11,304 nucleotides of DNA, from IMG/VR virus record IMGVR_UViG_3300000035_000055, positions 1-11,304 of that record, one strand, 5' to 3'. Each line of letters begins with the position of its first letter. Within the stretch, counting starts at the first letter, position 1. The translations under genes were made by a program, and so were the position numbers. Origin of the DNA: a virus. Below, piece after piece: positions 1 through 11,304 of this stretch. Under the pieces are notes generated by a model, which saw only the letters and a list, made by a program, of their open reading frames with translations, searched no databases and had not been told where the DNA came from.

Positions 1-50
1 TTTAAGTAGTTCATCAGATATAAAAAAGCGTCTTAAAACGGCTGTATGAC
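1..50. repeat. Left inverted terminal repeat (50 bp, perfect)
   Basis: Bases 1-50 (tttaagtagttcatcagatataaaaaagcgtcttaaaacggctgtatgac) are the exact reverse complement of 11255-11304. Identity stops at base 51 (t versus g). The 5' end begins with TTT. Confidence 0.97.
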
Positions 51-54
51 TATT

Positions 55-103
55 TAAAATAAAAGTCGGTCGAAATGTGCGAGGGACACACACCCGACCG
101 ACC
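55..103 (-). terminator. Rho-independent terminator closing the minus-strand transcription unit
   Basis: In the minus-sense RNA, GUCGGUCG (revcomp of 95-102) pairs with CGACCGAC (revcomp of 65-72). An inner UGUGUG/CGCACA helix needs a U-G wobble that exists only in the minus sense. The stem is followed by UUUUAUUUU (revcomp of 56-64). It lies about 50 nt downstream of the last stop codon at 154. Confidence 0.75.
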
Positions 104-153
104 GAATAGTACGACTTTAACGTCTGTACAACGATATAATATTAACGCACAAT

Positions 154-630
154 TTACTGTTTTATTTTGCGTCTGACACGTTTTTGTGTCGGCTGTGGTG
201 TAACTATACCTTCATAACGCAAAACCGTCTTATACGGCAAATTACAGTATGATTTTGACGTTGCCACACGTCTGCCGTTATCGTACCCGACACCTAACAG
301 ATGACCGACTGACATATAAATACTAACATCTCTATGTGGCGTTATCAGTATATCACCCGACATAAGACCTTCACCCGTTGCAAGGTTCACACGTCTTGTC
401 ACGTCTTTAAAACCTGCTTTAATCAGTGCGCCCGTAAGATTACCCGTATAACTTGCCCCGTACTGACGTACACTGATACCTGCTTTTTCTATGACATATA
501 TGACAAGTGATGCAGCGTCAAAGTACGATGTATCATTCAGAACATCTTGTATGTCCTTGCTATCTTCACATATTCGCATCATCTCTGATGCAAATATACC
601 CGATTGTCTATTAACTGTTTTCTTCAACAT
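154..630 (-). CDS. Last gene; possible papain-fold (NlpC/P60 or Amidase_5-like) cell-wall hydrolase or endolysin candidate, function uncertain
   Basis: The ORF-track start at 636 is GTG; the first ATG is at 630, preceded by AAGGGTG. YFDAASLVIYVIEKAGI followed by SGDILITPH resembles the D-C-S-x-hydrophobic ... GD-hydrophobic ... H layout of papain-like peptidoglycan amidases. Ala sits where the nucleophile Cys is expected. The gene overlaps the end of the upstream gene by 20 nt. Confidence 0.45.
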   Translation of the reverse strand: MLKKTVNRQSGIFASEMMRICEDSKDIQDVLNDTSYFDAASLVIYVIEKAGISVRQYGASYTGNLTGALIKAGFKDVTRRVNLATGEGLMSGDILITPHRDVSIYMSVGHLLGVGYDNGRRVATSKSYCNLPYKTVLRYEGIVTPQPTQKRVRRKIKQ

Positions 631-2512
631 AAACACCCTTATTTAAAAGTTCATAAATCATGTCTTTTTCATTTGTTGTCATTTGGTCATCTGATATGTC
701 GGTGACTTCTGTGAACACTGAATAACCGATTTTCTGCCCGATGACAACCCGTTCACATTCGTTGTTATACTGCTTGTTGTTCTTTGACTGATACCAACGA
801 ATATAAACATACGGTGTCAGTCCGTACAATATTTTGCTTTCAAACTGCTTTTTGCCTATATATTCAGTACCGTCACCCGTTCTGTATATGACATCTTGTT
901 TCACGTCACATTCATACAGTGCGAACACTATACCGTCAGTCATCAGTTTGGCAACACCTTCACCCGTGACAATATTCACGTCATATTGTAGGTTAATTGT
1001 CCTGCCCGTCAGTTTGCTGTCTAGTTGTTGCAGTCCTACAAACGGCAAGAATATTGTTATTTCCGTCTGATAGTCCGTGATGTTCTGATTGTGTGTCGGT
1101 ATCACGATGTCACCGAAATTCAGATTGATATATGTGTTAATCGGTGTCGATGCAGATATACCTGTGTCGTAAGTCGCACACCGAATGTTGCTTGCTATCG
1201 TGTCACCTATCTTGCAGAACACACGGTGAATTCTGTCGACATAATCACCTAAGTCAATGTTCCAAACGAAATAAGTGCTGCTCTCAGTCTTGAAACGTTT
1301 ACTTGCAAATTCTTTTAGGTTGTCGACAGTAACATTGTACACATTGATTGAACCGTACTTGTCAATATATTCGGTTGTAGGTGCTGCCGTACCTATAAGT
1401 TCGATTACAAGTTTACTCGTCAGTACCGAACAGTCGAACTTTATAGACGCTGTCTGCTTGTCATCAGACACTGTGAACGAATGTTCTATTTCACCGCCAT
1501 ATTCGTCTTGATACGTCAGTTTTGGTGTATCTTGAAAACTGTAATTTTCATTAGCGGTCAGCGTGATATTGACCATGTCAGATGTCGTAAACGGTGACGG
1601 TGAATGACTGCCCACCGCATTGGTAACATTGTTGTTAAGCGTAACTATATTCTTATACGCTGTCGCACTGCCCGAAAATTCTATACCTTTATCGGTGTCT
1701 ATGTCGTAAGACGATAAGTCGACAGTAAGTGTTGCGGTTGTCCCGTCATCTGTAATTGTCATCGTCACTTCATGAACTTCACCTTCACTGTCGGTGTATG
1801 ACATATAAGGTGCTGACACGAAAGTATAATTTTCGTTTGCGGTACACGTTATATCTAGCGTGTCCGTTGTCAGTGCGCTTTCGGGTATGCCGTATGTGGC
1901 ACAGTTTTCTATGTCGTTTGTTATAGCGACTGCCGAACCTATTATTTCGGCTGCTGCCGTTATCAAGATACCCTTATCAGATGTAAGGGTAAGTGTCGAT
2001 AAGTCAATATTGACAGTTGCTGACTGCTTGTCATCAGATACCGTAAAGTCGATATACCGCTTAACACCGTCACCGTCATAATATATGATGTTCGGCACGT
2101 CACCGCTGAACTGATAATTGTCACTGGCTGTCAGCGTGACCGCAAGTGTTTCATCTGACTTGATTGTTTCGGGTGCGTCAGACGTACACCCGACCAAATC
2201 AGTTGTAACCGTTATTGTTTCGGCTGACGCATCGGCTGTCACGCTGCCCGTCAGATAGGCAGTCACTTTTTTGCTGCCCATGTCCGAAATAGTAATTGTG
2301 AAAGTTGCTGTTTTTCCGTCATCACTTAAAACGGCTGTTTCAGTATATTCGTCACCGAATGAACCTTGATATTCGAATTTCGGCGCGTCTGTGAACTTGT
2401 ACCCGTCATTAGCCGTGACCGTACCCGTGAACTGTTCACGTTTGGTCACTTCATCGGGAAAACTCGCTGTCGTGTTCGCTATGTTGTTTGTTAAATTCAG
2501 TGTTACCGCCAT
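611..2512 (-). CDS. Large tail protein: four tandem ~95-aa beta-rich repeats plus a ~250-aa C-terminal domain (tail knob or receptor-binding candidate)
   Basis: ATG at 2512 is preceded by AAAGGTGA. At 633 aa it is the largest structural ORF and lies in the late module after the capsid gene. The C-terminal segment ITIFLPFVGLQQLDSKLTGRTINLQYDVNIVTGEG recalls the [24 protein letters not shown] region of the phi29 gp9 tail knob (recalled, weak). Confidence 0.6.
   Translation of the reverse strand: MAVTLNLTNNIANTTASFPDEVTKREQFTGTVTANDGYKFTDAPKFEYQGSFGDEYTETAVLSDDGKTATFTITISDMGSKKVTAYLTGSVTADASAETITVTTDLVGCTSDAPETIKSDETLAVTLTASDNYQFSGDVPNIIYYDGDGVKRYIDFTVSDDKQSATVNIDLSTLTLTSDKGILITAAAEIIGSAVAITNDIENCATYGIPESALTTDTLDITCTANENYTFVSAPYMSYTDSEGEVHEVTMTITDDGTTATLTVDLSSYDIDTDKGIEFSGSATAYKNIVTLNNNVTNAVGSHSPSPFTTSDMVNITLTANENYSFQDTPKLTYQDEYGGEIEHSFTVSDDKQTASIKFDCSVLTSKLVIELIGTAAPTTEYIDKYGSINVYNVTVDNLKEFASKRFKTESSTYFVWNIDLGDYVDRIHRVFCKIGDTIASNIRCATYDTGISASTPINTYINLNFGDIVIPTHNQNITDYQTEITIFLPFVGLQQLDSKLTGRTINLQYDVNIVTGEGVAKLMTDGIVFALYECDVKQDVIYRTGDGTEYIGKKQFESKILYGLTPYVYIRWYQSKNNKQYNNECERVVIGQKIGYSVFTEVTDISDDQMTTNEKDMIYELLNKGVYVEENS
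1379..2509 (-). repeat. Four tandem in-frame coding repeats (~95 aa each) in the N-terminal 60% of the 633-aa tail protein
   Basis: Approximate repeat units are aa 2-98, 99-193, 194-288 and 289-378. They share the pattern (L/I)T(A/C)(S/T)(A/D)N(E/D)NY-F ... P ... Y ... G ... FT(V/I)(S/T)DD(G/K)(K/Q)(T/S)A ... D(L/C)S. Units 2 and 4 keep a 15-nt exact core, ctgcttgtcatcaga, at 2024-2038 and 1454-1468. Confidence 0.85.
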
Positions 2513-2514
2513 AT

Positions 2515-2955
2515 TCAGTCACCTTTGATTGTTACCATAATAAGTTCACCTTCCTTGTCGAACTGCTGTTTAGGAAATGTCAGTTTTTCAAAGTTCGGCT
2601 GAACGTTGTAAATATCTTCCCTTGATGATATGTACTTGTCGGCACTGTCACTGCTTGATACGGTAGCGGTTGCCGTAAGTATCTTGTCACGGTATGTCAT
2701 CAGAACGTCAACCGACAGTGTCAGTTCATACGTCTTGTTTTCTAGCACCCGAAAACTGTCTACGAAATAATATCTGTTCAGTTCTTCAATGTACAGATAC
2801 GAATATGTAAATATATTGTCCCACCGTATAATGACTGTCGGTTTTACGATGTCGAACCCGTCACGGATAAGACCTTTGACACTGACACCGTCTGTCAGCG
2901 TCTTATTGATTATGTCCTTTCGGTTGTTGTAATTGTAAAGTGTTATATGTACCAT
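2515..2955 (-). CDS. Small tail protein, possibly equivalent to the N-terminal domain of a phi29 gp9-type tail knob
   Basis: The ORF-track start at 2961 is TTG; the first ATG is at 2955 (MVHITLY...). YSYLYIEELNRYYFVDSFRVLENKTYELTLSVDVLMTYRDKI resembles phi29 gp9 [47 protein letters not shown] (recalled). The stop at 2515 is 2 nt from the next ATG. Confidence 0.5.
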   Translation of the reverse strand: MVHITLYNYNNRKDIINKTLTDGVSVKGLIRDGFDIVKPTVIIRWDNIFTYSYLYIEELNRYYFVDSFRVLENKTYELTLSVDVLMTYRDKILTATATVSSSDSADKYISSREDIYNVQPNFEKLTFPKQQFDKEGELIMVTIKGD

Positions 2956-2974
2956 GACCAACTTATATTAAACA

Positions 2975-3025
2975 GTGCCGTGCCTGCTGCTATTATGGAG
3001 AAAAACAGTTATTCAGACACGGCAC
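2975..3025 (-). promoter_or_regulatory. Strong stem-loop in the 173-nt non-coding gap after the capsid gene (attenuator, RNA-stability element or part of a structured ncRNA)
   Basis: In the minus-sense RNA, GUGCCGUGUCUG pairs with CAGGCACGGCAC: 12 bp including one U-G wobble that would be a C-A mismatch in the plus sense. The loop is 27 nt and is followed by UGUUUAAUAU. No ORF fits the 2962-3134 gap on either strand. Confidence 0.55.
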
Positions 3026-3134
3026 ATAAGAATGAAAGCACGCCCGTAAAGACACCGATGAACACCGTCAAGTAAGGTTATGAGCCTTAAAACGTATGTA
3101 CAACACGGCTGCCGTCAGACGTTAGTTATACATA

Positions 3135-4295
3135 TTATGCTATGAAGAACAGCACGAAATTTTCATTTGTGTCGTTGAAGAACGAACAGTCAAATTTAAA
3201 GTAGTTGTTGAAAAACTCTGCTTTCGCATTGTAGTTGGTCGTAACTCGCTTGTCGCTGTTCGTAACACCTAAACTGTCACGGTCGAACATCACACCGATG
3301 ACACCCGATATTTCGATGTCAGTACCGCTTGCAGACTTGACATTGATTTTGCTACATTCGTCAAAACTGTACTTCAACCCACTTGCTTGCCAACAAGGTA
3401 CTGTTTCACATTTAGGCAGCACCACTTCTGACTTGTTGTAAGTGTCGCTGTACAGATATGTCCCTGCTGCTTTCGCAAAATCTGTCAGCAGTACGGTATG
3501 CAGCATGTCGGCACTTGTAAAACGTTCTTTACCGCCAACGTTGAACAGTGTGGATATGCTAGCCAAACGGTCACTGTACATACCCATGATATAAGACGCA
3601 TAACGTATGAATTCGGGGTTAAGAACCGCTTGTTCTGCTGTCAGCGTTGTGCCGAATTTCTGATTGTACATGTACAAAAGGTTCACGCATCTGTTTGTGC
3701 TGCCCTTCGAATAGTCACCGCCAAATGTGTCAGCGTCTGCAATAAGTGTTTCAGCGACCATGTTGTTAATAGTACGCATGATAAGTGCGTCTGTCTTGAT
3801 AGTCATCGACTTGTCGACAGCGTTGTAAATCATCGAATAAAAGCCGTTAAGTTGTTCTGCGTTGTCAAAACTTTCTTTCACTTGACGTTCTGTCACGCTT
3901 ACGGGTACTTCGAAAGTCACCTTGCTGTTAAAGAATTTGGCACTTACTGTCGGTTTATAGAATACGTCTTGTTTGTATTCTTTGCCGTTCTCCAAATTCC
4001 ATGTGTCATTTTCCTGTGCTTCGGGTATGTCGCACTGTATCTTTTCAAGTACGCTACCGAATTCCCAACTGTCCATAAGAACAGACGGTACTTTACCCGT
4101 GTATGGTCGGTTGACGAATACAACCTTACCAATATGGTCAACTAATGACTTGACATAATTGTCAACTTGATTTGCGTTAAAAATCTCTGTACCCAAATCT
4201 ACAACACCGCTCAAATCTTCTGCAACGATGTCGCTTTTTCCTAAAACTTCGTTAGAAATAGAATTAACTATCTCATAAATTTGTTTTACTTCCAT
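3135..4295 (-). CDS. Major capsid protein, phi29 gp8-like (HK97 fold), without a C-terminal Ig-like decoration domain
   Basis: The ORF-track start at 4304 is TTG; the first ATG is at 4295 (MEVKQIY...). [23 protein letters not shown] matches phi29 gp8 [38 protein letters not shown] matches [28 protein letters not shown] matches [32 protein letters not shown] matches NYYLHVWQTLSASRFANAVAF. All phi29 sequences are recalled. Confidence 0.85.
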   Translation of the reverse strand: [386 protein letters not shown]

Positions 4296-4313
4296 AATAT
4301 CCAAATTAAAATG

Positions 4314-4901
4314 TTAATAAATGTCTGTACAAATATCTTCTATGATGTCGGACAACATCTGACGTTGCAGATTGAACAGTCTGACTTTCAGTTCAGCGTC
4401 TATGTTCTTCAACACTTCCGAACCGTCACCCGTAATTGTTCTGACATTTGTCAGTTCATTGTATGTTTCGGTTCTGTCGTTGTTACCGACTGTTTCATGT
4501 CTTTCACGCTGACTGAATTCATCTTCGTTGAACGCCTTGTTGCTGTCCGTGTCCGTTTGGTCACTGTCGCTGACTGCCGTGATGCTGCCCGTCTTAACGT
4601 CAACTATCTTCTGCCCGTCAGATATACCATATTCGGCATACAGTGCGTCATGCAGTTTTTTCCATGACTGCAAGTGAGTATATACGACAGCAGTTATGAA
4701 TGTGACATAATTGTCTGCCGTAAGATAATCAAGCAAAGTACGGTTACCATACAGCCCGACTGCTAGACTGTCCATACTCTGCCGTGTCTGACCCGTGAAC
4801 AGTTCACTGAATTCATCAGCGAGCGTGCTAACTGTCCCGTCATCAGAAAATACAGTTTGGAACAGTCCGTTTTCCGATGTGAATAATTCCTTGTACTTCA
4901 T
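4314..4901 (-). CDS. Hypothetical assembly or structural protein between portal and capsid genes (scaffold or head-tail adaptor/lower-collar candidate by position only)
   Basis: 195 aa. Its ATG overlaps the portal stop (ATGA at 4898-4901), suggesting translational coupling. It ends 10 nt before the TTG codon at 4304 and 18 nt before the preferred capsid ATG at 4295. No motif was recognised. Confidence 0.7.
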   Translation of the reverse strand: MKYKELFTSENGLFQTVFSDDGTVSTLADEFSELFTGQTRQSMDSLAVGLYGNRTLLDYLTADNYVTFITAVVYTHLQSWKKLHDALYAEYGISDGQKIVDVKTGSITAVSDSDQTDTDSNKAFNEDEFSQRERHETVGNNDRTETYNELTNVRTITGDGSEVLKNIDAELKVRLFNLQRQMLSDIIEDICTDIY

Positions 4902-6109
4902 GCCCTTACTGTTTCTAGTTCGTCTTTATGTCTATCAGAATTTGTCCGTTCCGTTGTTTCGTCTGTATCTTGTAATAGGACATCGTTCTGTTTTTCGTCA
5001 TCTGTACCGTATGAAGGGGTGTCGCTGCTTTCGTCATCATCTGTCCCGTCATCGTCTGTGTCGGTGTCTGTTTCGTCATCAGACGTGATTGTTTCTTCAT
5101 CGTCATTCGTGTCGGCTGCTGTTTCACCGTCACCGTCTGTCGTGTCGGCTGCTGTTTCGTCTGATATACTTGTATCACTTGTTTCATCTTCCTTTATATT
5201 TTCTTCTGTCATCTCCCCGTCTGTCGGTGTGTCCGTTGTTTCAATAATCTTGTCGTTATTTTCTTTTTCAGTTTTCCACGCACTGTTAAGGTCAACCGTT
5301 ATGTCAGTGCCGAACATATCATTGATTTTCTTTATAGCACCTATTCGCTGACGTAACATATCATCTACAAACGGCAAAAGTGCGTCAACGTTAGCAGCGA
5401 CTTCACCCGTATTCAAGCGTTCACGTTTCATGTTGAAATTAGCGTTCAAACCCAATTCGTTCAGTAGGTTCGCTTTGAAATACTGCTGCAATTCGATAAG
5501 TTGTGCAATATACTGACTGTTCGTTGTCGGTGCTGACTGCATCTTGACACCTTCGAAAAAAGCGTTGTTTCCTATGACAGAAAAATCACCTTCTTTTATC
5601 TTCTTCAAGAATTCATCTGCCGACTGTTTCGTCTTGTCATCGCTAGCCGAAATAAGCATTGTTATTCGTGAAAGTATCGCTGCCGTGTCAAGCGAAATTG
5701 TGCTGTCTGTCAGCAACACCGCATACTTACCTATAAGCGGTAACAGTCCGTTCATCTCATAATCGTTACGACATAATACACCGTCTTGTCTGATGTCGAA
5801 CTGTTTGTATAGGTTTAGTGCCACATTAGCGACTGTGTACACGGTAGGTCTGCCGTATTCATCGGGTTGACCGCCCAACGTACCCGAAAGCGCAATTATC
5901 TGTCCTTCGACATCGGTGACGAAACAGTGACCGTCAGTCTGTAACAGATGTTCGAATTCTTCCTGCGGTAGACTGTCGGGCAGTCCTTCATATCTGAATA
6001 TAGACTGTGTCTGACACAGTGTATAAGATATTATGTGACCTACCGACTTGTCCTTGTTCTTGAACAGTGACTGAAAGTAACTGTAATTTATATCTTTACT
6101 TTTTGACAT
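4898..6109 (-). CDS. Portal (connector/upper collar) protein, phi29 gp10-like, with a ~120-aa hyper-acidic C-terminal extension
   Basis: [20 protein letters not shown] matches phi29 gp10 [43 protein letters not shown] matches [50 protein letters not shown] matches [26 protein letters not shown]. Roughly aa 1-280 covers the 309-aa phi29 protein; the remainder is D/E/T-rich. Confidence 0.88.
   Translation of the reverse strand: [403 protein letters not shown]
5107..5158 (-). repeat. 19-nt exact direct repeat inside the portal acidic tail
   Basis: tcgtgtcggctgctgtttc occurs at 5107-5125 and again at 5140-5158. The 33-nt (11-codon) spacing encodes the duplicated peptide ETAADT. Confidence 0.9.
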
Positions 6110-6125
6110 ATTGTTAATTTTGGTG

Positions 6126-6133
6126 CAAATATA
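6126..6133 (-). promoter_or_regulatory. Candidate Bacteroidota-type -7 promoter element (TATATTTG) for the late/morphogenesis genes
   Basis: Plus-strand caaatata is TATATTTG on the minus strand, matching the TAnnTTTG consensus. It lies in the AT-rich 71-nt gap between the ATPase stop (6181) and the portal ATG (6109), about 17 nt upstream of that ATG. No clear -33 TTTG was seen. Confidence 0.5.
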
Positions 6134-6180
6134 ATATATATTTTATTACATTGTTTAAATATTGTGTTAATTTAAGTTAA

Positions 6181-7311
6181 TCACTTACCATGCAGTATGT
6201 TAGACTTTGCCGATGTCAATATGTAATTACGCACGATTTCACCAATTTCGTTGCTTTGATAGAACACCTTGTCTTTGGCAAAATAAGCACTGATTTTTCG
6301 GTCTATTTCGGTAGCGGTAGAAATTAACCGTCTATGATAATTAGGTCTGCCGTTCATGTCTAGCGTATAAATAAGTGAACCTTCCGTGTCTTTTATCGGT
6401 GTCGTTTTTGAGTGAATGTAAATAAAATTATCCGTGTCCGTCATAATCACGTTACCTTGCAACGTCACGTCTGAAAACACGATGTAGAAAATGAACTGTA
6501 CGTCACACGGTTTATATTTCACTGGCAAGTGTGGATAAACAGCCAATTCCCACTTACCGCCCGTTATCATCTGTAAGTTCTCATTATCGAAACAGAAATA
6601 CTTGTTCGATTTCTTTTGATGTTCGGTGCTGCTGCAATATTCAACTGCGACTGTCGCACCTGCGTCACCGAACTTATAGATGTCAATACTGCCCTGCTGC
6701 ATACGCTGTACACCCGTAAGTCCCATCTCTGCGAAATAAGGACAGTATTTGTTAACGGTGTTACCTAACATAAACACCTTGACATCGTCACGCTGTCTTA
6801 TTATTGTAGACAGCAGGTTCATGAACAACATAAATTCATCGGGTAGGTAATAACGTCTTGTCAAGAATTCATCAAATACGATAGTAGTGACATTAGGATA
6901 AGATGTCGATTTCTCATGTTCTTGTTCACTTAGACAGAACCCGTAACAGAACGGTGTTAAGTCGGGCACACGCTTACCCGTTTCACTGTCGAATGATGAC
7001 AAGAACCACTTGCCCGACAGATAGAACACTTCATTGAACTTACCGTCAGTCAGTGACGTGATAAGCCCGTTTTCGACTATACCCGAAAACAGCGTGTCGG
7101 CACGCTTGCCCCGTAAATCTTCACGCCACCTTCTGACGTAACACATCTGCTTGCCCGTTTTAAGATACTGTTTGATACCGTACAGTAATAGGGCGTATGT
7201 CTTGCCGTTTGAACGTTCACCGAAAATGACGTTATAGTCAGCGTGTTTCGCTAGTATGCTTGTAAGCGAATAATAACGGTTCTTTACTTCTTTTACCTTT
7301 ACTTGTTTCAT
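6181..7311 (-). CDS. DNA packaging (encapsidation) ATPase, phi29 gp16-like
   Basis: YNVIFGERSNGKTYA (Walker A) matches phi29 gp16 LNFVIGARGIGKSYA. CYVRRWREDL matches IYVRRYKPEL. EKSTSYPNVTTIVFDEFL (Walker B) matches EKSNAYPNVSTIVFDEFI. FMLGNTVNKYCPYF matches ICLSNAVSVVNPYF. Its ATG overlaps the polymerase stop (ATGA at 7308-7311). Confidence 0.92.
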   Translation of the reverse strand: MKQVKVKEVKNRYYSLTSILAKHADYNVIFGERSNGKTYALLLYGIKQYLKTGKQMCYVRRWREDLRGKRADTLFSGIVENGLITSLTDGKFNEVFYLSGKWFLSSFDSETGKRVPDLTPFCYGFCLSEQEHEKSTSYPNVTTIVFDEFLTRRYYLPDEFMLFMNLLSTIIRQRDDVKVFMLGNTVNKYCPYFAEMGLTGVQRMQQGSIDIYKFGDAGATVAVEYCSSTEHQKKSNKYFCFDNENLQMITGGKWELAVYPHLPVKYKPCDVQFIFYIVFSDVTLQGNVIMTDTDNFIYIHSKTTPIKDTEGSLIYTLDMNGRPNYHRRLISTATEIDRKISAYFAKDKVFYQSNEIGEIVRNYILTSAKSNILHGK

Positions 7312-9521
7312 AATTCTTTAAATTTAATACCCCGTAAATAATTCAGATATATCACCGACAGTGACAGTGTGTACGCTGTCGGTTCAAGGTGTACGCCCGA
7401 CAGTTCACTGAACTCTGACGTGTTACCTAAATAGTCAGTCAGACACCCCGTGACGGGATAGTCGACATAAGTGTGTATATTCTTGCCCGTTGCCGTTGCA
7501 GGAATGTCAAGATAATTCGTGAAAGCGTCAAAAATACCTTCGTCACCGTACTTATCCAAAAGATACGGTATCGCTGAACGCTTGTTCACACCCGACACCG
7601 TCAGTGAATAGTCATAATCAGTCTGACCGACAGTAAGTGCGTTTTCTTCTTCGACCATGTATCGTTTTGCACCTAACGTCTTGAACCTTCTGTACACACC
7701 TTCAAAATCCCACACACCCAACATCTTCGTCACACCCTTTATCGTTTTAGGAGAACACAGCGAAAAATCTATACCGTGATACTTGCACGCTTTTTTAAGT
7801 TTTGTTTCGACAAGATGGTTATAAGCGTCAAAATAGTCAGCGTGTTTTTCGTAATTCAAAATCTTGATACTGTCGGTATCTGAATATATGTAGTCACCCT
7901 TACATTCAAGTATGCCCGTGAACAAATTGCGTCTTGCATAAGCAGTCACGAATATGCCCCAACCGTAAAACAAAAAGCGATTGCGTGACTGATTATAAGA
8001 CATAAGCAGTTCTTCTTTCATGTCGGCTGTGACCTGCTGCGTGTCCCATACACCGTTGTATGTGAATTCTTCACGCAACGGGTTCGTGACCGTCATGCCG
8101 TAACATGAATTCAGCATTTCTTTGCTGTTAAGGTATTCTGTTTCCTTGCCTTTGACACCTTTCAAGGTAGTCTTTTTCTCATACAGATGTAATATCGATT
8201 TTACGAATTCTGTCGGCAGATACTGTTTTTCATATATCCACATTTGCCCGACTTTCAGATTACCCCAACTGTACAGACGTTTGATAATATCATAATCAAT
8301 GTTCGTTATCGTAAGACACACTTTTTCAGCAGCGACCAACCGCCCGTTATTTTCTGCCGTGTTGTGCTTTATCCAACATTTTGACACTGGTATATAGTTT
8401 TCAAAACTTTCACGGGCAAAGATGTCATCGAATTCAACGTCAAAGATGCAAAGGTACTTTTGCATGATGAACTGAAAATGTTTCATGCCTGCTACCTTCA
8501 CCCGTCTGCCCCGTGACATCGGGAATTGTTCTGCTATCATGACATACGGATAACTAGACGTAAAATCGTAACTTGCAACGTCTGTGACTGTAAGGTCGCT
8601 ATAATTAGCATTGGCGTGCGTGAACCCACCCATGAATGAACGCTGCATGATTTCGAATTCATCAAGTGACGTTATCTGTAAATCCTGCATCAGTTCGATA
8701 TAACGAAAGTTCTGCTGACGCTTGCCGTTTTCGTCACGTCTGAACAGACAGTTTTTGCGACAGTATTTGCGCACAAAACCCGTTTTTGTAAGCGGTATAT
8801 TGATTATATTCTTGTTATCTTCGATTTGCTGCTGTATGTACGCCATGACAACACGCACGTCATTGACACAGTACCCGATTTCCAATTCTGTAAGCGGTGT
8901 TTCGCTGTGGCGTAAAAGCGAGTAGTCCAAATCACCCGTCAGTTTGCTGACCTTGTATCGGTTAAGTTGTGAACCTAATTTTGCAAGCGAATACCCCGAC
9001 AAAAGATAAGAACATCTGAATTCTATAAAAGTGTCCGTAATTGCATAAATAGGTTTTCTTAAATCAATACTGAATACCTTATGCCACCCGAACAGTGAAC
9101 GTATGAACTGAAATTCGTATGACAGATTATGAACGTACACAATCAGATGTCGTTTTTCAGACAGTTCAAGTGCGTCAGCCATACGGTCACAGATATACAG
9201 AAATTCTTGCCATGTACGCCCGATTATTATATTACCGTTAATCCCGAATTGCCACACATACATGATACCTATTTTTTCGAATTTCGGTTTTTTGCCCGTC
9301 TTGTCAAATATTTCTTGTACTTGTTCGTATGTATATTGTCTACCGTCTAAATCACGGTAGAATGATGTTGTTTCGATGTCGAATGAACACGGTATATTGT
9401 AATAATATACACCTTTCGAATTGCCCCGTAAGTTCTTGTTGTTCACCGACAGTTTAAGAACTGTGTCGATGTCCTGCGGTCGGTATACATCACCGTGTTC
9501 GTTGAATTGTACTGCTTTCAT
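7308..9521 (-). CDS. Protein-primed family-B DNA polymerase (pPolB)
   Basis: Motifs found: ExoI SFDIETT (aa 46-52); ExoII HNLSYEFQF (131-139); ExoIII YCVND (217-221); motif A YDFTSSYPY (318-326); motif B KEMLNSCYG (467-475); motif C YSDTDS (546-551); KxY as GAKRY (617-621). Order and spacing match phi29 gp2, with extra length (737 versus 575 aa). Confidence 0.96.
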   Translation of the reverse strand: MKAVQFNEHGDVYRPQDIDTVLKLSVNNKNLRGNSKGVYYYNIPCSFDIETTSFYRDLDGRQYTYEQVQEIFDKTGKKPKFEKIGIMYVWQFGINGNIIIGRTWQEFLYICDRMADALELSEKRHLIVYVHNLSYEFQFIRSLFGWHKVFSIDLRKPIYAITDTFIEFRCSYLLSGYSLAKLGSQLNRYKVSKLTGDLDYSLLRHSETPLTELEIGYCVNDVRVVMAYIQQQIEDNKNIINIPLTKTGFVRKYCRKNCLFRRDENGKRQQNFRYIELMQDLQITSLDEFEIMQRSFMGGFTHANANYSDLTVTDVASYDFTSSYPYVMIAEQFPMSRGRRVKVAGMKHFQFIMQKYLCIFDVEFDDIFARESFENYIPVSKCWIKHNTAENNGRLVAAEKVCLTITNIDYDIIKRLYSWGNLKVGQMWIYEKQYLPTEFVKSILHLYEKKTTLKGVKGKETEYLNSKEMLNSCYGMTVTNPLREEFTYNGVWDTQQVTADMKEELLMSYNQSRNRFLFYGWGIFVTAYARRNLFTGILECKGDYIYSDTDSIKILNYEKHADYFDAYNHLVETKLKKACKYHGIDFSLCSPKTIKGVTKMLGVWDFEGVYRRFKTLGAKRYMVEEENALTVGQTDYDYSLTVSGVNKRSAIPYLLDKYGDEGIFDAFTNYLDIPATATGKNIHTYVDYPVTGCLTDYLGNTSEFSELSGVHLEPTAYTLSLSVIYLNYLRGIKFKEL

Positions 9522-9555
9522 TCTTATAATTGTATTTATTTAGATTATATGCTGC

Positions 9556-10185
9556 TTATAACATATCTTTAAGTTCATCATATATCCTGCGAACATTTTC
9601 TGTCATCTCGCTTGCTGCATCGTCTGCCTGGTGTTCGATGTCTTGTTGCAGTGCTTTCGAAAGTTGTTCAGCGTCACTTTCGATTTGGTCGCTTATGTCC
9701 TGTGCTGCCCGTTCAAGTTCACCCGAAAAATCCTTATAACGCATCAGATACTGTTCGACATATTCAGACGATTTTATACTGTCCAACTTACCCGACATAT
9801 AGTCAATCATGTCACTGTATTCTTGTTTCGTTAGGTCGTAACTTGTTCTGATATGTTCGTTGTACTGTCTTGCACCGCTTGCCATAGATGTCGGCTGTTT
9901 CAAGAACTGTACCGCTTTCGCATAATCTATCTTTAAATCTTTCCATGACTTACCACCGACAGAAAACTTGCTGTAACGGTCACTGTCAAGATGCAGTGAC
10001 TTAACAGCAGGAGAATATATCCCTGCTTTTTCAATGTTCTGAATTCGTCTGTTCGCTATCTGAAATACACGCTTGATTTCATCTTTCATGTCCTTGCTGC
10101 TTTCGGCAGCGTTCAGAATATCAGTGCGAAAGTCATTTTTCAGACGCTGAAACAGACTGTCAGAATAATTTATCTTACCTTTCAT
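9556..10185 (-). CDS. Candidate terminal (priming) protein, assigned by position only
   Basis: This 209-aa ORF lies immediately upstream of the pPolB gene, as gp3 does in phi29. It has a basic N-terminal half and an acidic, helical-looking C-terminal third. A genome with ITRs and a pPolB requires a terminal protein. No sequence-level similarity was recognised. Confidence 0.45.
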   Translation of the reverse strand: MKGKINYSDSLFQRLKNDFRTDILNAAESSKDMKDEIKRVFQIANRRIQNIEKAGIYSPAVKSLHLDSDRYSKFSVGGKSWKDLKIDYAKAVQFLKQPTSMASGARQYNEHIRTSYDLTKQEYSDMIDYMSGKLDSIKSSEYVEQYLMRYKDFSGELERAAQDISDQIESDAEQLSKALQQDIEHQADDAASEMTENVRRIYDELKDML

Positions 10186-10201
10186 AATTTACCTTTGCTT
10201 G

Positions 10202-10249
10202 AAAAAACGGGGTACAGTTGTAGCGTCATTTTCATACAACCATACCCCG
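10202..10249 (-). terminator. Rho-independent terminator between the early small ORFs and the replication genes
   Basis: In the minus-sense RNA, CGGGGUAUGGUUGU pairs with ACAACUGUACCCCG: 14 bp including two adjacent wobble pairs (U-G and G-U) that would be mismatches in the plus sense. The loop is 14 nt and is followed by UUUUUU (revcomp of 10202-10207). It starts 30 nt after the stop at 10279. Confidence 0.8.
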
Positions 10250-10278
10250 CAACTGATTAAACCTAAACAAATACTACA

Positions 10279-10650
10279 TTATAAGTCAACGAAATTGATA
10301 CCGTAACATTTGCGCCCGTGACTTTCGTACTCATAAATCGTATAACCGACTTTACCTTCACGGATAGCAGCGACAGCGTCAGCGTCATTCAAGATGTCAC
10401 GAACAGTGTCCGTCATGTGCGCTGGTATGTTAATTAGTTCTTTATGCTTGCTGTCGATGAACACGGGTGCTGTTTCGATTTTACCGTTGAAAATGAAACA
10501 CCCGTTAAAAGTGTGAATGTTGTCAGCACCGCCTCGCTTTTTGTCATTGTAGATGTTCGACAGTTTTGTGTACTCAAAACCCGTTGTGTCGATGTCGAAC
10601 TGTGCACCTTTATTGAACCTTGATGCAAAAGAAAAATTTTTCTGTTCCAT
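10279..10650 (-). CDS. Early protein of unknown function (ssDNA- or dsDNA-binding replication accessory candidate by position and size only)
   Basis: Clean 123-aa ORF with an ATG start, in line with the other genes. It occupies the position that SSB/DBP genes hold in phi29-like phages. No motif was recognised. Confidence 0.7.
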   Translation of the reverse strand: MEQKNFSFASRFNKGAQFDIDTTGFEYTKLSNIYNDKKRGGADNIHTFNGCFIFNGKIETAPVFIDSKHKELINIPAHMTDTVRDILNDADAVAAIREGKVGYTIYEYESHGRKCYGINFVDL

Positions 10651-10674
10651 GATTAAATAATTTATACGTTAATA

Positions 10675-10845
10675 CTATTTTGTGGGTTCGCTGCCGACTG
10701 ACAGCGAATTAACCCAAACTTTGAACCTATTTGCTTTAATAACCCAATTCGTATTCTTGCTGACTTCATCGTCTTGTATAAAAGCGTTCAAAGCACACAG
10801 CAAGTTGAACTGTACTTCATCGAAATTATTACGTTGTTCACCCAT
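10675..10845 (-). CDS. Small early ORF (56 aa) missing from the supplied ORF track
   Basis: Hand translation of the minus strand gives ATG at 10845: MGEQRNNFDEVQFNLLCALNAFIQDDEVSKNTNWVIKANRFKVWVNSLSVGSEPTK, with stop TAG at 10675-10677. It fills the only gap in an otherwise continuous minus-strand gene array, 11 nt after the upstream stop and 24 nt before the next ATG. Confidence 0.55.
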   Translation of the reverse strand: MGEQRNNFDEVQFNLLCALNAFIQDDEVSKNTNWVIKANRFKVWVNSLSVGSEPTK

Positions 10846-10856
10846 AATATCAAAAT

Positions 10857-11114
10857 TTAATGTGTACCAACAAGTTGGTGATTAAAATAATAACTGTTCA
10901 TGACTAGACGGTGTGTGAAATAACAATCGTCTAATACCTTCACATAACCTTTGCCGACTAGTTGTGACAGATAACCTTTAATCTGATTATCTGTAAGACC
11001 TAACATCTTATAGTCTGTTTCATCATAGCAAAAACACCCGTTTTCACCGTAACTGTTCGCATTTTCCACACATAGCGTGTAAATGATTTCTTCAATGTCT
11101 GTCAACTGTTTCAT
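10857..11114 (-). CDS. First early gene; possible small winged-helix DNA-binding protein
   Basis: 85-aa ORF with an ATG start, the first gene after the right-end promoter. LGLTDNQIKGYLSQLVGKGYVKVLDD resembles the recognition helix plus wing of wHTH regulators. This assignment is weak. Confidence 0.6.
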   Translation of the reverse strand: MKQLTDIEEIIYTLCVENANSYGENGCFCYDETDYKMLGLTDNQIKGYLSQLVGKGYVKVLDDCYFTHRLVMNSYYFNHQLVGTH

Positions 11115-11147
11115 AATATGTATCTATTTAAGTATAACTTTCGGTTG

Positions 11148-11155
11148 CAAATATA
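11148..11155 (-). promoter_or_regulatory. Candidate Bacteroidota-type -7 promoter element (TATATTTG) for the early genes
   Basis: Plus-strand caaatata is TATATTTG on the minus strand. It lies about 34 nt upstream of the first ATG (11114), inside the 140-nt non-coding stretch between the right ITR and the first gene. The octamer is identical to the one at 6126-6133. Confidence 0.55.
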
Positions 11156-11201
11156 CATCGTTTTCAGATAGGTTGTATCATTTATTGTGTTAAAAATATA
11201 A

Positions 11202-11220
11202 AAATAAAAAATTTTTATTT
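11202..11220. repeat. 19-bp all-A/T palindrome between the right ITR and the early promoter
   Basis: aaataaaaa-a-tttttattt has 9-nt perfect arms around a single central base. It sits in a longer A/T-only tract (about 11191-11220). Confidence 0.8.
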
Positions 11221-11254
11221 CTTTAACAAATAAATCTTACACACCGAAATACCC

Positions 11255-11304
11255 GTCATACAGCCGTTTTAAGACGCTTTTTTATATCTGATGAACTACT
11301 TAAA
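11255..11304. repeat. Right inverted terminal repeat (50 bp, perfect)
   Basis: Exact reverse complement of bases 1-50, ending at the last base of the window. Confidence 0.97.

Follow-up and report, generated by a model that had tools for sequence, protein, structure and literature searches.

The locus described here raises the question of which bacterial phylum expresses, and is infected by, a small phi29-like phage. The DNA analyzed is the 11,304-nucleotide (nt) stretch of the IMG/VR virus record IMGVR_UViG_3300000035_000055 (positions 1 to 11,304; hereafter the window), in which 12 plausible genes were found, all on the minus strand. A preliminary description had noted the octamer TATATTTG on the coding strand before two gene blocks, at 6126-6133 and 11148-11155, and had taken it as an expression signal of a Bacteroidota host. 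Both copies were confirmed, and a third was found at 591-598. Our comparison with related phages makes a Bacteroidota host highly probable for the window phage and for the clade of relatives lacking Shine-Dalgarno (SD) sequences to which it belongs. The assignment draws on the expression signals, since TAHHTTTG promoters, the absence of SD and A-rich translation starts together form a hallmark of Bacteroidota.

All three octamers lie in non-coding gaps before genes and extend to the same 10-mer, TATATTTGCA, for which ~0.02 occurrences per strand are expected under a mononucleotide model. The octamer itself is expected 0.71 times, and three copies were reached in six of 200 shuffles. The first two boxes are followed by an ATG after 33 nt (11148-11155) and 16 nt (6126-6133). 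The third is located in the 28-nt gap between the stop codon of the tail-knob gene (611) and ATG 582, or inside an open reading frame (ORF) if the lysin-like gene starts at ATG 630. Bacteroidota promoters consist of a -33/-7 pair, TTTG/TAnnTTTG, refined to TAHHTTTG with the G at -5, and in F. johnsoniae their -33 part is either weak or not detectable (PMC6847099, PMC7366714). With the published box position of T-12 to G-5 (PMC6847099), the following transcription start sites (TSSs) and leaders were predicted:

11146-11155, minus strand: P1, candidate early promoter, -7 box TATATTTG(CA); predicted TSS ~11143, leader ~29 nt; precedes the genes at 11114-10279
6124-6133, minus strand: P2, candidate late promoter, -7 box TATATTTG(CA); predicted TSS ~6121, leader ~12 nt; precedes the connector-to-tail block
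589-598, minus strand: P3, third copy of TATATTTGCA; predicted TSS ~586; precedes ATG 582
11183-11193, minus strand: upstream element TTAACACAATA, 27 nt before the P1 -7 box
6160-6170, minus strand: upstream element TTAACACAATA, 26 nt before the P2 -7 box

Among these candidates P3 inspires the least confidence, as its box possibly lies inside an ORF. The boxes resemble the sigma-ABfr promoters of B. fragilis, B. thetaiotaomicron and F. johnsoniae, in which the -7 element TAHHTTTG is often followed by CA, and the leader predicted for P1 is similar in length to the median leader of B. thetaiotaomicron (32 nt). As judged from the sequence, the window differs from these promoters in having no -33 TTTG and in the short leaders predicted for P2 and P3 (~12 and ~4 nt). 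The 11-mer TTAACACAATA, a putative regulator-binding or UP-like element, occurs in only two exact copies in the window, both 26-27 nt from a -7 box. It sits further upstream than the -33 TTTG of the relatives, and TTAACAC repeats were also observed before the terminal elements of relatives.

A scan of IMG/VR based on the DNA polymerase (Pol) retrieved 41 related contigs, 40 of them with Pol identities of 62-67% to the window and one (L040) with 46%, and most are 11-12.7 kb long; a scan of species-representative genomes added 70 more contigs. In the spacer between the ATPase and connector genes, which is homologous to the P2 region, a TAnnTTTG box was found in 39 of the 41 IMG/VR relatives. Thirty-seven of these 41 late spacers share one layout in which a terminator hairpin ending in ...CCCCCGTTTTATTTGG is followed by ~20 variable nt and by an invariant TATCTTTGCA positioned ~32 nt before the ATG; the box is preceded at ~20 nt by TTTG, with a variable sequence in between. 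Variants of the late-spacer box are TAAATTTGCA in L001 and TATCTTTGTA in L002. The layout TTTG-N~20-TAnnTTTG appears to be the Bacteroidota -33/-7 architecture, conserved while its flanks drift, and the same architecture was found before the leftmost (early) genes and before the opposite-strand right-end genes of the relatives. The window, unlike these relatives, has no terminator upstream of P2.

Genes in the controls and in every genome of 9 kb or more were called with one crude gene caller, and the SD fraction, which is the share of starts with an anti-SD duplex of -4.4 kcal/mol or lower, splits the genomes into two groups. Forty-six genomes, the window among them, have an SD fraction below 0.3; 44 of them are relatives with Pol identities of at least 57% to the window, and the SD-less relatives range from 0.00 to 0.14. 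The 44 SD-using relatives have fractions of 0.5-1.0 and Pol identities of at most 54% throughout. Two genomes fall between the groups, L099 (0.33, with a Pol identity of at most 54%) and L042, which covers 9.1 kb of the window with identical sequence (0.38 over eight genes). The motif counts in the upstream spacers, given as found/expected, are:

46 SD-less genomes: TAnnTTTG 152/33; TTTG-N18-22-TAnnTTTG 103/1.0; TATAAT 5/67; TTGAC-N17-20-TAnnnT 0/5.7
44 SD-using relatives: TAnnTTTG 28/28; TTTG-N18-22-TAnnTTTG 2/0.7; TATAAT 84/52; TTGAC-N17-20-TAnnnT 33/4.8
Bacteroides phage B40-8: TAnnTTTG 15/2.7; TTTG-N18-22-TAnnTTTG 5/0.08; the other two motifs not compared

In the SD-less genomes the complete -33/-7 motif exceeds its expectation ~100-fold, and TATAAT falls far short of its own. 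De novo hexamer enrichment in the B40-8 spacers placed CTTTGC and TTTGCA on top, and the GCA extension of the window 10-mer is therefore typical of a Bacteroides phage. The earlier identification of the octamer with the TAnnTTTG -7 element of Bacteroidota primary-sigma promoters gains support, at the level of motifs, from the boxes of the 39 relatives and from the enrichment in the clade.

The translation starts form a second and separate set of signals. Seven of the 12 starts had been described as lacking SD; the absence holds, and the count was understated, as a GGAG, GAGG or AGGA core within -18 to -4 was found at none of the 12. The strongest anti-SD duplex in the window reaches -5.4 kcal/mol at the alternative start ATG 630 and -4.9 kcal/mol at the others, compared with mean values of -6.0 kcal/mol in phage Astrid and -7.2 kcal/mol in phi29. 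The SD fraction of the window is 0.25 against a background of 0.11, and the controls gave 0.10 for B40-8, 0.77 for Astrid, 0.62 for Phanie and 0.83 for phi29. The frequency of A in the window is 0.75 at -3 and 0.50-0.75 at -15 to -11, and B40-8 gives the same profile in the same pipeline, whereas the SD-using relatives show a G peak at -12 to -9 instead. Published data on Bacteroidetes likewise show starts that lack SD and have an excess of A at -3, -6 and -11 to -15 (PMC6847099, PMC7366714).

In the neighbor-joining tree of Pol, a distance tree without support values, the SD-less, motif-bearing genomes that were included form one clade, the sister of which (L098 and L050) uses SD, so that three independent signal types change together at one node. 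The members of this SD-less clade (L001-L039, L041, L045-L049, L051, L070 and L089) have Pol sequences 57-67% identical to that of the window and, like the window, combine the absence of SD with TAHHTTTG promoters, which they carry at early, late and right-end positions. They differ from the window in that most have the canonical -33 TTTG, many have a terminator before the late promoter and two to five opposite-strand genes at the right end, and some carry the palindrome TGTTTCACGTGAAACA or sigma-54-like elements in their inverted terminal repeats (ITRs). Protein searches of a GenBank-derived phage collection yielded no member of the SD-less clade.

These signals suggest the following scheme of expression. 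Host RNA polymerase with a Bacteroidota primary sigma factor of the sigma-ABfr type would start at three promoters of a '-7 only' kind, all with TATATTTGCA. P1 (11148-11155) would drive the three small early genes and, by partial read-through of a hairpin at 10201-10250, would also serve the putative terminal-protein gene and the Pol and ATPase genes; read-through is proposed because no recognizable promoter was found before these three genes, that is, downstream of the hairpin. P2 (6126-6133) would boost the connector, collar, capsid and tail-knob genes, and P3 (591-598) may drive the lysin-like gene from a nearly leaderless mRNA, with a hairpin and U-run at 54-103 closing the transcription unit. 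The element TTAACACAATA may bind a regulator. The mRNAs would be translated without SD pairing through A-rich, unstructured starts (A at -3 and at -11 to -15), as in Bacteroidota.

Several observations weigh against a Bacteroidota host, some of them numerical. TAnnTTTG is not enriched over the whole genome of the window (12 found, 11.2 expected), and the 803 nt of non-coding DNA contain it three times on their sense strand against 0.66-0.79 expected, with a P of ~0.03-0.04, which is a modest statistic for a degenerate motif. The preliminary description had stated that a frequency in the intergenic regions no higher than in composition-matched shuffles would weaken its reading; the non-coding enrichment passes this comparison, modestly and by the window alone. 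In the relatives, many clade members are closely related and the clade counts are thus partly pseudo-replicated. The genome-wide count and the modest P might suggest that the motifs arose by chance in AT-rich spacers. The three exact 10-mers exceed their expectation by far, however, the box occurs at homologous positions in nearly all IMG/VR relatives, and the bipartite motif is strongly enriched in the clade but not in SD-using relatives of similar guanine-cytosine (GC) content. A chance origin, already contradicted by these comparative data, is extremely unlikely.

Further difficulties lie in the boxes themselves. A -33 TTTG (or TTG) is absent 19-21 nt upstream of the box at P1, P2 and P3, and P3 would have a leader of 4 nt or sit within an ORF. 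The TATATT of the box is a five-of-six match to TATAAT, the -10 hexamer of sigma-70 promoters, and among the weak and scattered hits of a sigma-70 consensus scan one (9/12) overlaps P2, the only overlap with a spacer. With the nearest cultured relatives infecting Gammaproteobacteria, TATATT could be an ordinary -10 hexamer and the host a proteobacterium, as for Astrithrvirus-like phages. The same scan returned nothing at P1 and P3, a -35 TTGACA is absent, and the part of the box that is invariant in the clade is TTTG(C/T)A rather than the -10 core. The depletion of TATAAT in the SD-less genomes and the lack of SD at every window start, compared with the high SD fractions of Astrid and Phanie, also stand against this explanation, which we consider very unlikely. 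The two promoter types are not interchangeable: -35/-10 promoters are not used by the primary sigma factor of Bacteroidota, nor Bacteroidota promoters by sigma-70 hosts (PMC6847099, PMC7366714).

The 10-mer could alternatively be the site of a phage-encoded factor, for instance a small early gene product, in which case it would say little about the host sigma factor. P1 and P2 share TTAACACAATA at a fixed 26-27 nt upstream, TTAACA and TTTAAC are enriched in the spacers of the relatives, and the early proteins have no known function, all of which would fit such a factor. The genome, on the other hand, is too small for a polymerase of its own, and family searches found no sigma-like domain. The conserved core is exactly TAHHTTTG, with TTTG 19-21 nt upstream, also in the unrelated Bacteroides siphovirus B40-8, and an early promoter needs the host enzyme before any phage protein exists. 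The phage-factor explanation is accordingly judged improbable, and recognition of the boxes by a Bacteroidota polymerase is preferred.

The taxonomic labels of the bins in which clade members occur are also not those expected of a Bacteroidota phage. Four SD-less members (L045, L046, L047 and L084) were binned with Gastranaerophilales/Melainabacteria, four others together with Christensenellaceae, Acutalibacteraceae and Scatosoma, and one with Prevotella, so that no consistent co-binning with Bacteroidota genomes was observed. A direct connection of the phage to a host, through CRISPR spacers (for which no search was made), a prophage or a culture, was not found, and searches with the lysin and tail proteins for homologues in a cellular context gave only phage contigs of ~11-12 kb or fragments. 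SD is moreover absent in a subset of Cyanobacteria as well (PMC6847099), which makes the Gastranaerophilales labels the only serious rival. The host would then be a Melainabacterium of the gut (Gastranaerophilales), or some other non-Bacteroidota lineage that is poor in SD and has similar signal requirements, and the four species-representative metagenome-assembled genomes (MAGs) concerned are the most of any taxon among the closest hits. Literature searches on Gastranaerophilales phages or on SD use in Melainabacteria gave nothing usable.

Four points speak against such a host. The same clade was also binned with Clostridia families, which are expected to use SD, and with Prevotella, and the binning is demonstrably unreliable. 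The clade contigs have mostly 35-38% GC (up to 44%), and the bins may follow composition. The combination of TTTG-N19-21-TAnnTTTG with depleted TATAAT is the architecture published for Bacteroidota, and B40-8 reproduces it. Finally, the M15 lysin of the L003-type subclade (L003:10581-11006) has 1537 clusters at 90% identity (E-value at most 1e-10), several of them with 186-1226 members, and the longest contig among the top 120 clusters is ~12 kb; these numbers indicate that the clade is very abundant in public metagenomes, which suggests a very common host. We regard a Gastranaerophilales or similar host as unlikely, though less so than the other alternatives.

The unreliability of the labels is apparent from the SD-using side. 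Every scored relative binned with Bacteroidales, Bacteroidaceae, Alistipes, Cryptobacteroides or Paludibacteraceae uses strong SD (fractions of 0.68-0.93), and the spacers of these contigs (L072, L075, L079, L080, L092, L097, L102 and L106) have little or no TAnnTTTG, so that their bin labels are probably wrong. MAG labels were for this reason rejected as host evidence: they are mutually inconsistent and place Bacteroidales on SD users, and host suggestions based on labels need to be re-checked against the intrinsic signals. Co-binning is judged uninformative for the host rather than contradictory to a Bacteroidota assignment.

Phi29-like phages, cultured or otherwise verified, are known from Bacillota, Actinomycetota and Mycoplasma and, more recently, from Gammaproteobacteria. 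The hosts named for the cultured ones in the preliminary description, Firmicutes or Mycoplasma, no longer cover all of them, and the cultured phages closest to the window infect Gammaproteobacteria. Literature searches found no cultured phi29-like phage of Bacteroidota. It is likely that the abundant uncultured clade of ~11-12.7 kb represents the first phi29-like lineage on Bacteroidota, descended from SD-using ancestors with sigma-70-type promoters by a single host jump with complete replacement of the signals; the window phage would be a deep, rare branch with TTAACACAATA in place of the -33 box, and some relatives would carry ITR elements of sigma-54 consensus. The expression signals and the virus type are each known, and their combination is new in practice. 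The proposed extension of the host range is thus backed by the signals, but the suggestion of such a host is not the first of its kind. For the phi29-like isolate 2692_55609 (12,148 bp, from human faeces) homologue searches had led to the suggestion of a Bacteroidales host in 2024 (Evseev et al. 2024, PMC11476376). That isolate is reported to be related to Amedibacillus phage AD70P2, whose Pol is only 33% identical to that of the window.

We infer the host here from expression signals, and the general idea had been raised in the literature in 2024. If the assignment is true, a Bacteroidota-adapted lineage adds a dominant gut phylum to the host range of phi29-like phages, and a 12-kb genome with 12 genes would be among the smallest of the tailed phages known for Bacteroidota. 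The clade would then provide a natural experiment in which a change of host phylum was followed by replacement of promoters, SD and start-codon context alike, with the structural and replication modules conserved. For host prediction, the intrinsic expression signals separated the hosts cleanly where MAG co-binning was contradictory. A compact protein-primed replicon with Bacteroidota promoters could also serve genetic tools in Bacteroides or Prevotella.

The phi29-like identity of the virus, as stated in the preliminary description, was confirmed by family matches of four proteins, namely the protein-primed family-B Pol (PF03175, E-value 4e-15; phrog_1907, E-value 3e-71), the gp16-type ATPase (PF05894, E-value 9e-25), the connector (PF05352, E-value 6e-15) and the Phi29_MCP major capsid protein (MCP; PF25622, E-value 2e-51). 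The genes and related features of the window are:

10857-11114, minus strand: early gene 1, 85 amino acids (aa), without SD, A at -3; no function assigned by family searches
10675-10845, minus strand: early gene 2, 56 aa; no function assigned by family searches
10279-10650, minus strand: early gene 3, 123 aa; conserved in the clade, 54% identical to a 121-aa protein of L003
10201-10250, minus strand: intrinsic terminator-like hairpin (44 nt) with U6 after the third early gene; z-score -2.8
9556-10185, minus strand: terminal-protein candidate, 209 aa, immediately upstream of Pol; role suggested by synteny
7308-9521, minus strand: protein-primed family-B DNA polymerase; family matches and 47% identity to the Pol of Astrid
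6181-7311, minus strand: gp16-type packaging ATPase; family matches
4898-6109, minus strand: upper collar/connector with an acidic C-terminal tail; family matches
4314-4901, minus strand: 195-aa protein in the position of the shortened lower collar of Astrithr-like phages; synteny with Astrid and PMC11476376; no family match
3135-4295, minus strand: phi29-type MCP; family match and MCP comparison
2956-3134, minus strand: GC-richer non-coding region of 179 nt between the capsid and tail-knob N-part genes
2515-2955, minus strand: homologue of the tail-knob N-part, 146 aa; weak PHROG tail match and synteny with the 'putative tail knob protein' of Phanie
611-2512, minus strand: major part of the tail knob, 633 aa, with repeated N-terminal Ig-like domains; homologues carry PF18998; PMC11476376
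154-582 (from ATG 582) or up to ATG 630 (the choice of the gene callers), minus strand: protein with an endolysin-like domain; PF25309
54-103, minus strand: terminator-like hairpin with a U-run after the lysin-like gene; z-score -4.25

On one side of the hairpin at 10201-10250 lie the three small early genes, and on the other the genes for the terminal-protein candidate, Pol and the ATPase. The terminal-protein candidate is 26% identical to the syntenic ORF2 of Astrid (E-value 5e-9) and matched no family model. A winged-helix regulator was considered for the 85-aa early protein and set aside as a guess, the mean predicted local distance difference test (pLDDT) score of its predicted structure (55.7) being insufficient for a fold search.

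The nearest cultured phages are the Astrithrvirus-like phages of 10.4-11.9 kb, with hosts in Salmonella, Acinetobacter, Pectobacterium, Enterobacter, Vibrio and Shigella; the six nearest are 41-47% identical to the window in Pol and 52-58% in MCP over full-length matches. Salmonella phages astrithr, Astrid and assan, Acinetobacter phage Phanie and Pectobacterium phage DU_PP_III have linear genomes of 11-12 kb with ITRs, as does the window phage, and they share its order of terminal-protein candidate, Pol, gp16 ATPase, connector, short collar, MCP and a tail knob in two genes, with identities of 45-47% in Pol and 52-58% in MCP. The gene order agrees with that of Astrid and Phanie down to the two-gene tail knob, a split described by Evseev et al. 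2024 (PMC11476376). These phages differ from the window in their SD fractions (0.62-0.77), in the lack of TAnnTTTG enrichment, in their gammaproteobacterial hosts and in having right-end genes on the opposite strand, whereas the window uses one strand only. Phi29 (Salasmaviridae) shares with the window the PolB, gp16 ATPase, connector and MCP families, the reliance on host RNA polymerase and the terminus AAAG, and it differs in its 6-bp ITRs, its sigma-A -35/-10 promoters and its strong SD (0.83). The virus is an Astrithrvirus-like (phi29-like), protein-primed podovirus with a linear genome of 12.1 kb, and the window covers the unique core of that genome. A near-identity nucleotide search of the GenBank-derived phage collection gave no match to the window, and an exact-sequence look-up of its Pol returned no record.

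The window is not the complete genome. It ends in a perfect repeat that continues in other contigs, and the segments concerned are:

1-50 and 11255-11304: perfect 50-bp inverted repeat, the inner end of the right and left ITR, respectively
L043:4054-4464, L122:1-411, L042:9088-9126 and L121:1-63: segments extending the window

The extending contigs were obtained independently, from JGI and ENA, and match the window at 100% identity; beyond its two ends they run on into one shared sequence, which is inverted at one end relative to the other. In L043 and L122 this added stretch is 411 nt long and stops at the identical base. The reconstructed genome has 12,126 bp and ITRs of 461 bp, with the 5' start AAAGGTACGC, and the 50-bp repeat of the window is probably the result of an assembler collapsing the long repeat. 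The 411-nt extension contains seven further GGTAC in one orientation, two CGTGAAAC and four TGTTAA, and no canonical TAnnTTTG pointing inward was found in it. The lineage of the window is rare; few of the JGI and ENA assemblies contained the identical sequence.

The two CGTGAAAC of the extension are half-sites of the palindrome TGTTTCACGTGAAACA, which is among the most enriched k-mers in the spacers of the relatives and is absent from the window. In the relatives the palindrome recurs, both in the terminator loop that precedes the late promoter and beside other promoters (L003:5095-5215, the homologous spacers of ~37 loci, and several sites in L049, L051 and L070). Many SD-less relatives also contain TTTGGCACG(C/G)TTTTTGCA inside each terminal repeat, an element that the window and the SD-using relatives lack. 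Up to four copies of the GGCACG type occur per end, mostly ~60-70 nt from the contig end and pointing inward (20 loci, among them L002:134-195, L003:28-109, L027:83-97 and L049:65-79 with mirrored copies). The element is an exact match to the sigma-54 -24/-12 consensus TGGCACG-N4-TTGC and could be a putative sigma-54 promoter or a replication-origin element.

The major tail-knob protein (611-2512) contains about four tandem repeats of ~90 aa each within its N-terminal 380 residues, and the PF18998 domain of its homologues is InlB B-repeat-like. Its closest non-identical homologue is only 35% identical, and the likely receptor-binding part therefore appears specific to the lineage of the window.

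The lysin-like protein has as its sole match the 'endolysin-like domain' PF25309, with a score under the curated cut-off of that family, and just two homologues among 5.8 billion proteins. The only non-identical one, P0002, also has NlpC/P60 and peptidoglycan-binding domains, and the Cys of its 'DCGH' is Ala in the window protein. The relatives checked (L001, L002, L003 and L039) carry M15 or amidase_2 lysins that are unrelated to that of the window, on the opposite strand in three of the four. As the proteins are not homologous, alignment could not settle the start codon.

The region at 2956-3134 folds into two long hairpins (z-score -2.2) and could act as a terminator of the capsid gene or an attenuator, or encode a small RNA, for example a packaging RNA (pRNA). 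A scan of the window against Rfam with E-values up to 1 gave zero matches, in this region as elsewhere, and no counterpart of the phi29 pRNA was detected by it; we know of no pRNA reported for Astrithr-like phages. In L070 and L089 the spacer homologous to 2956-3134 has a TAACTTTG box followed at once by a hairpin and T-run. These two contigs also have an equivalent of the hairpin at 10201-10250, which immediately follows a TTTG/TAACTTTG promoter and so falls within a 5' leader.

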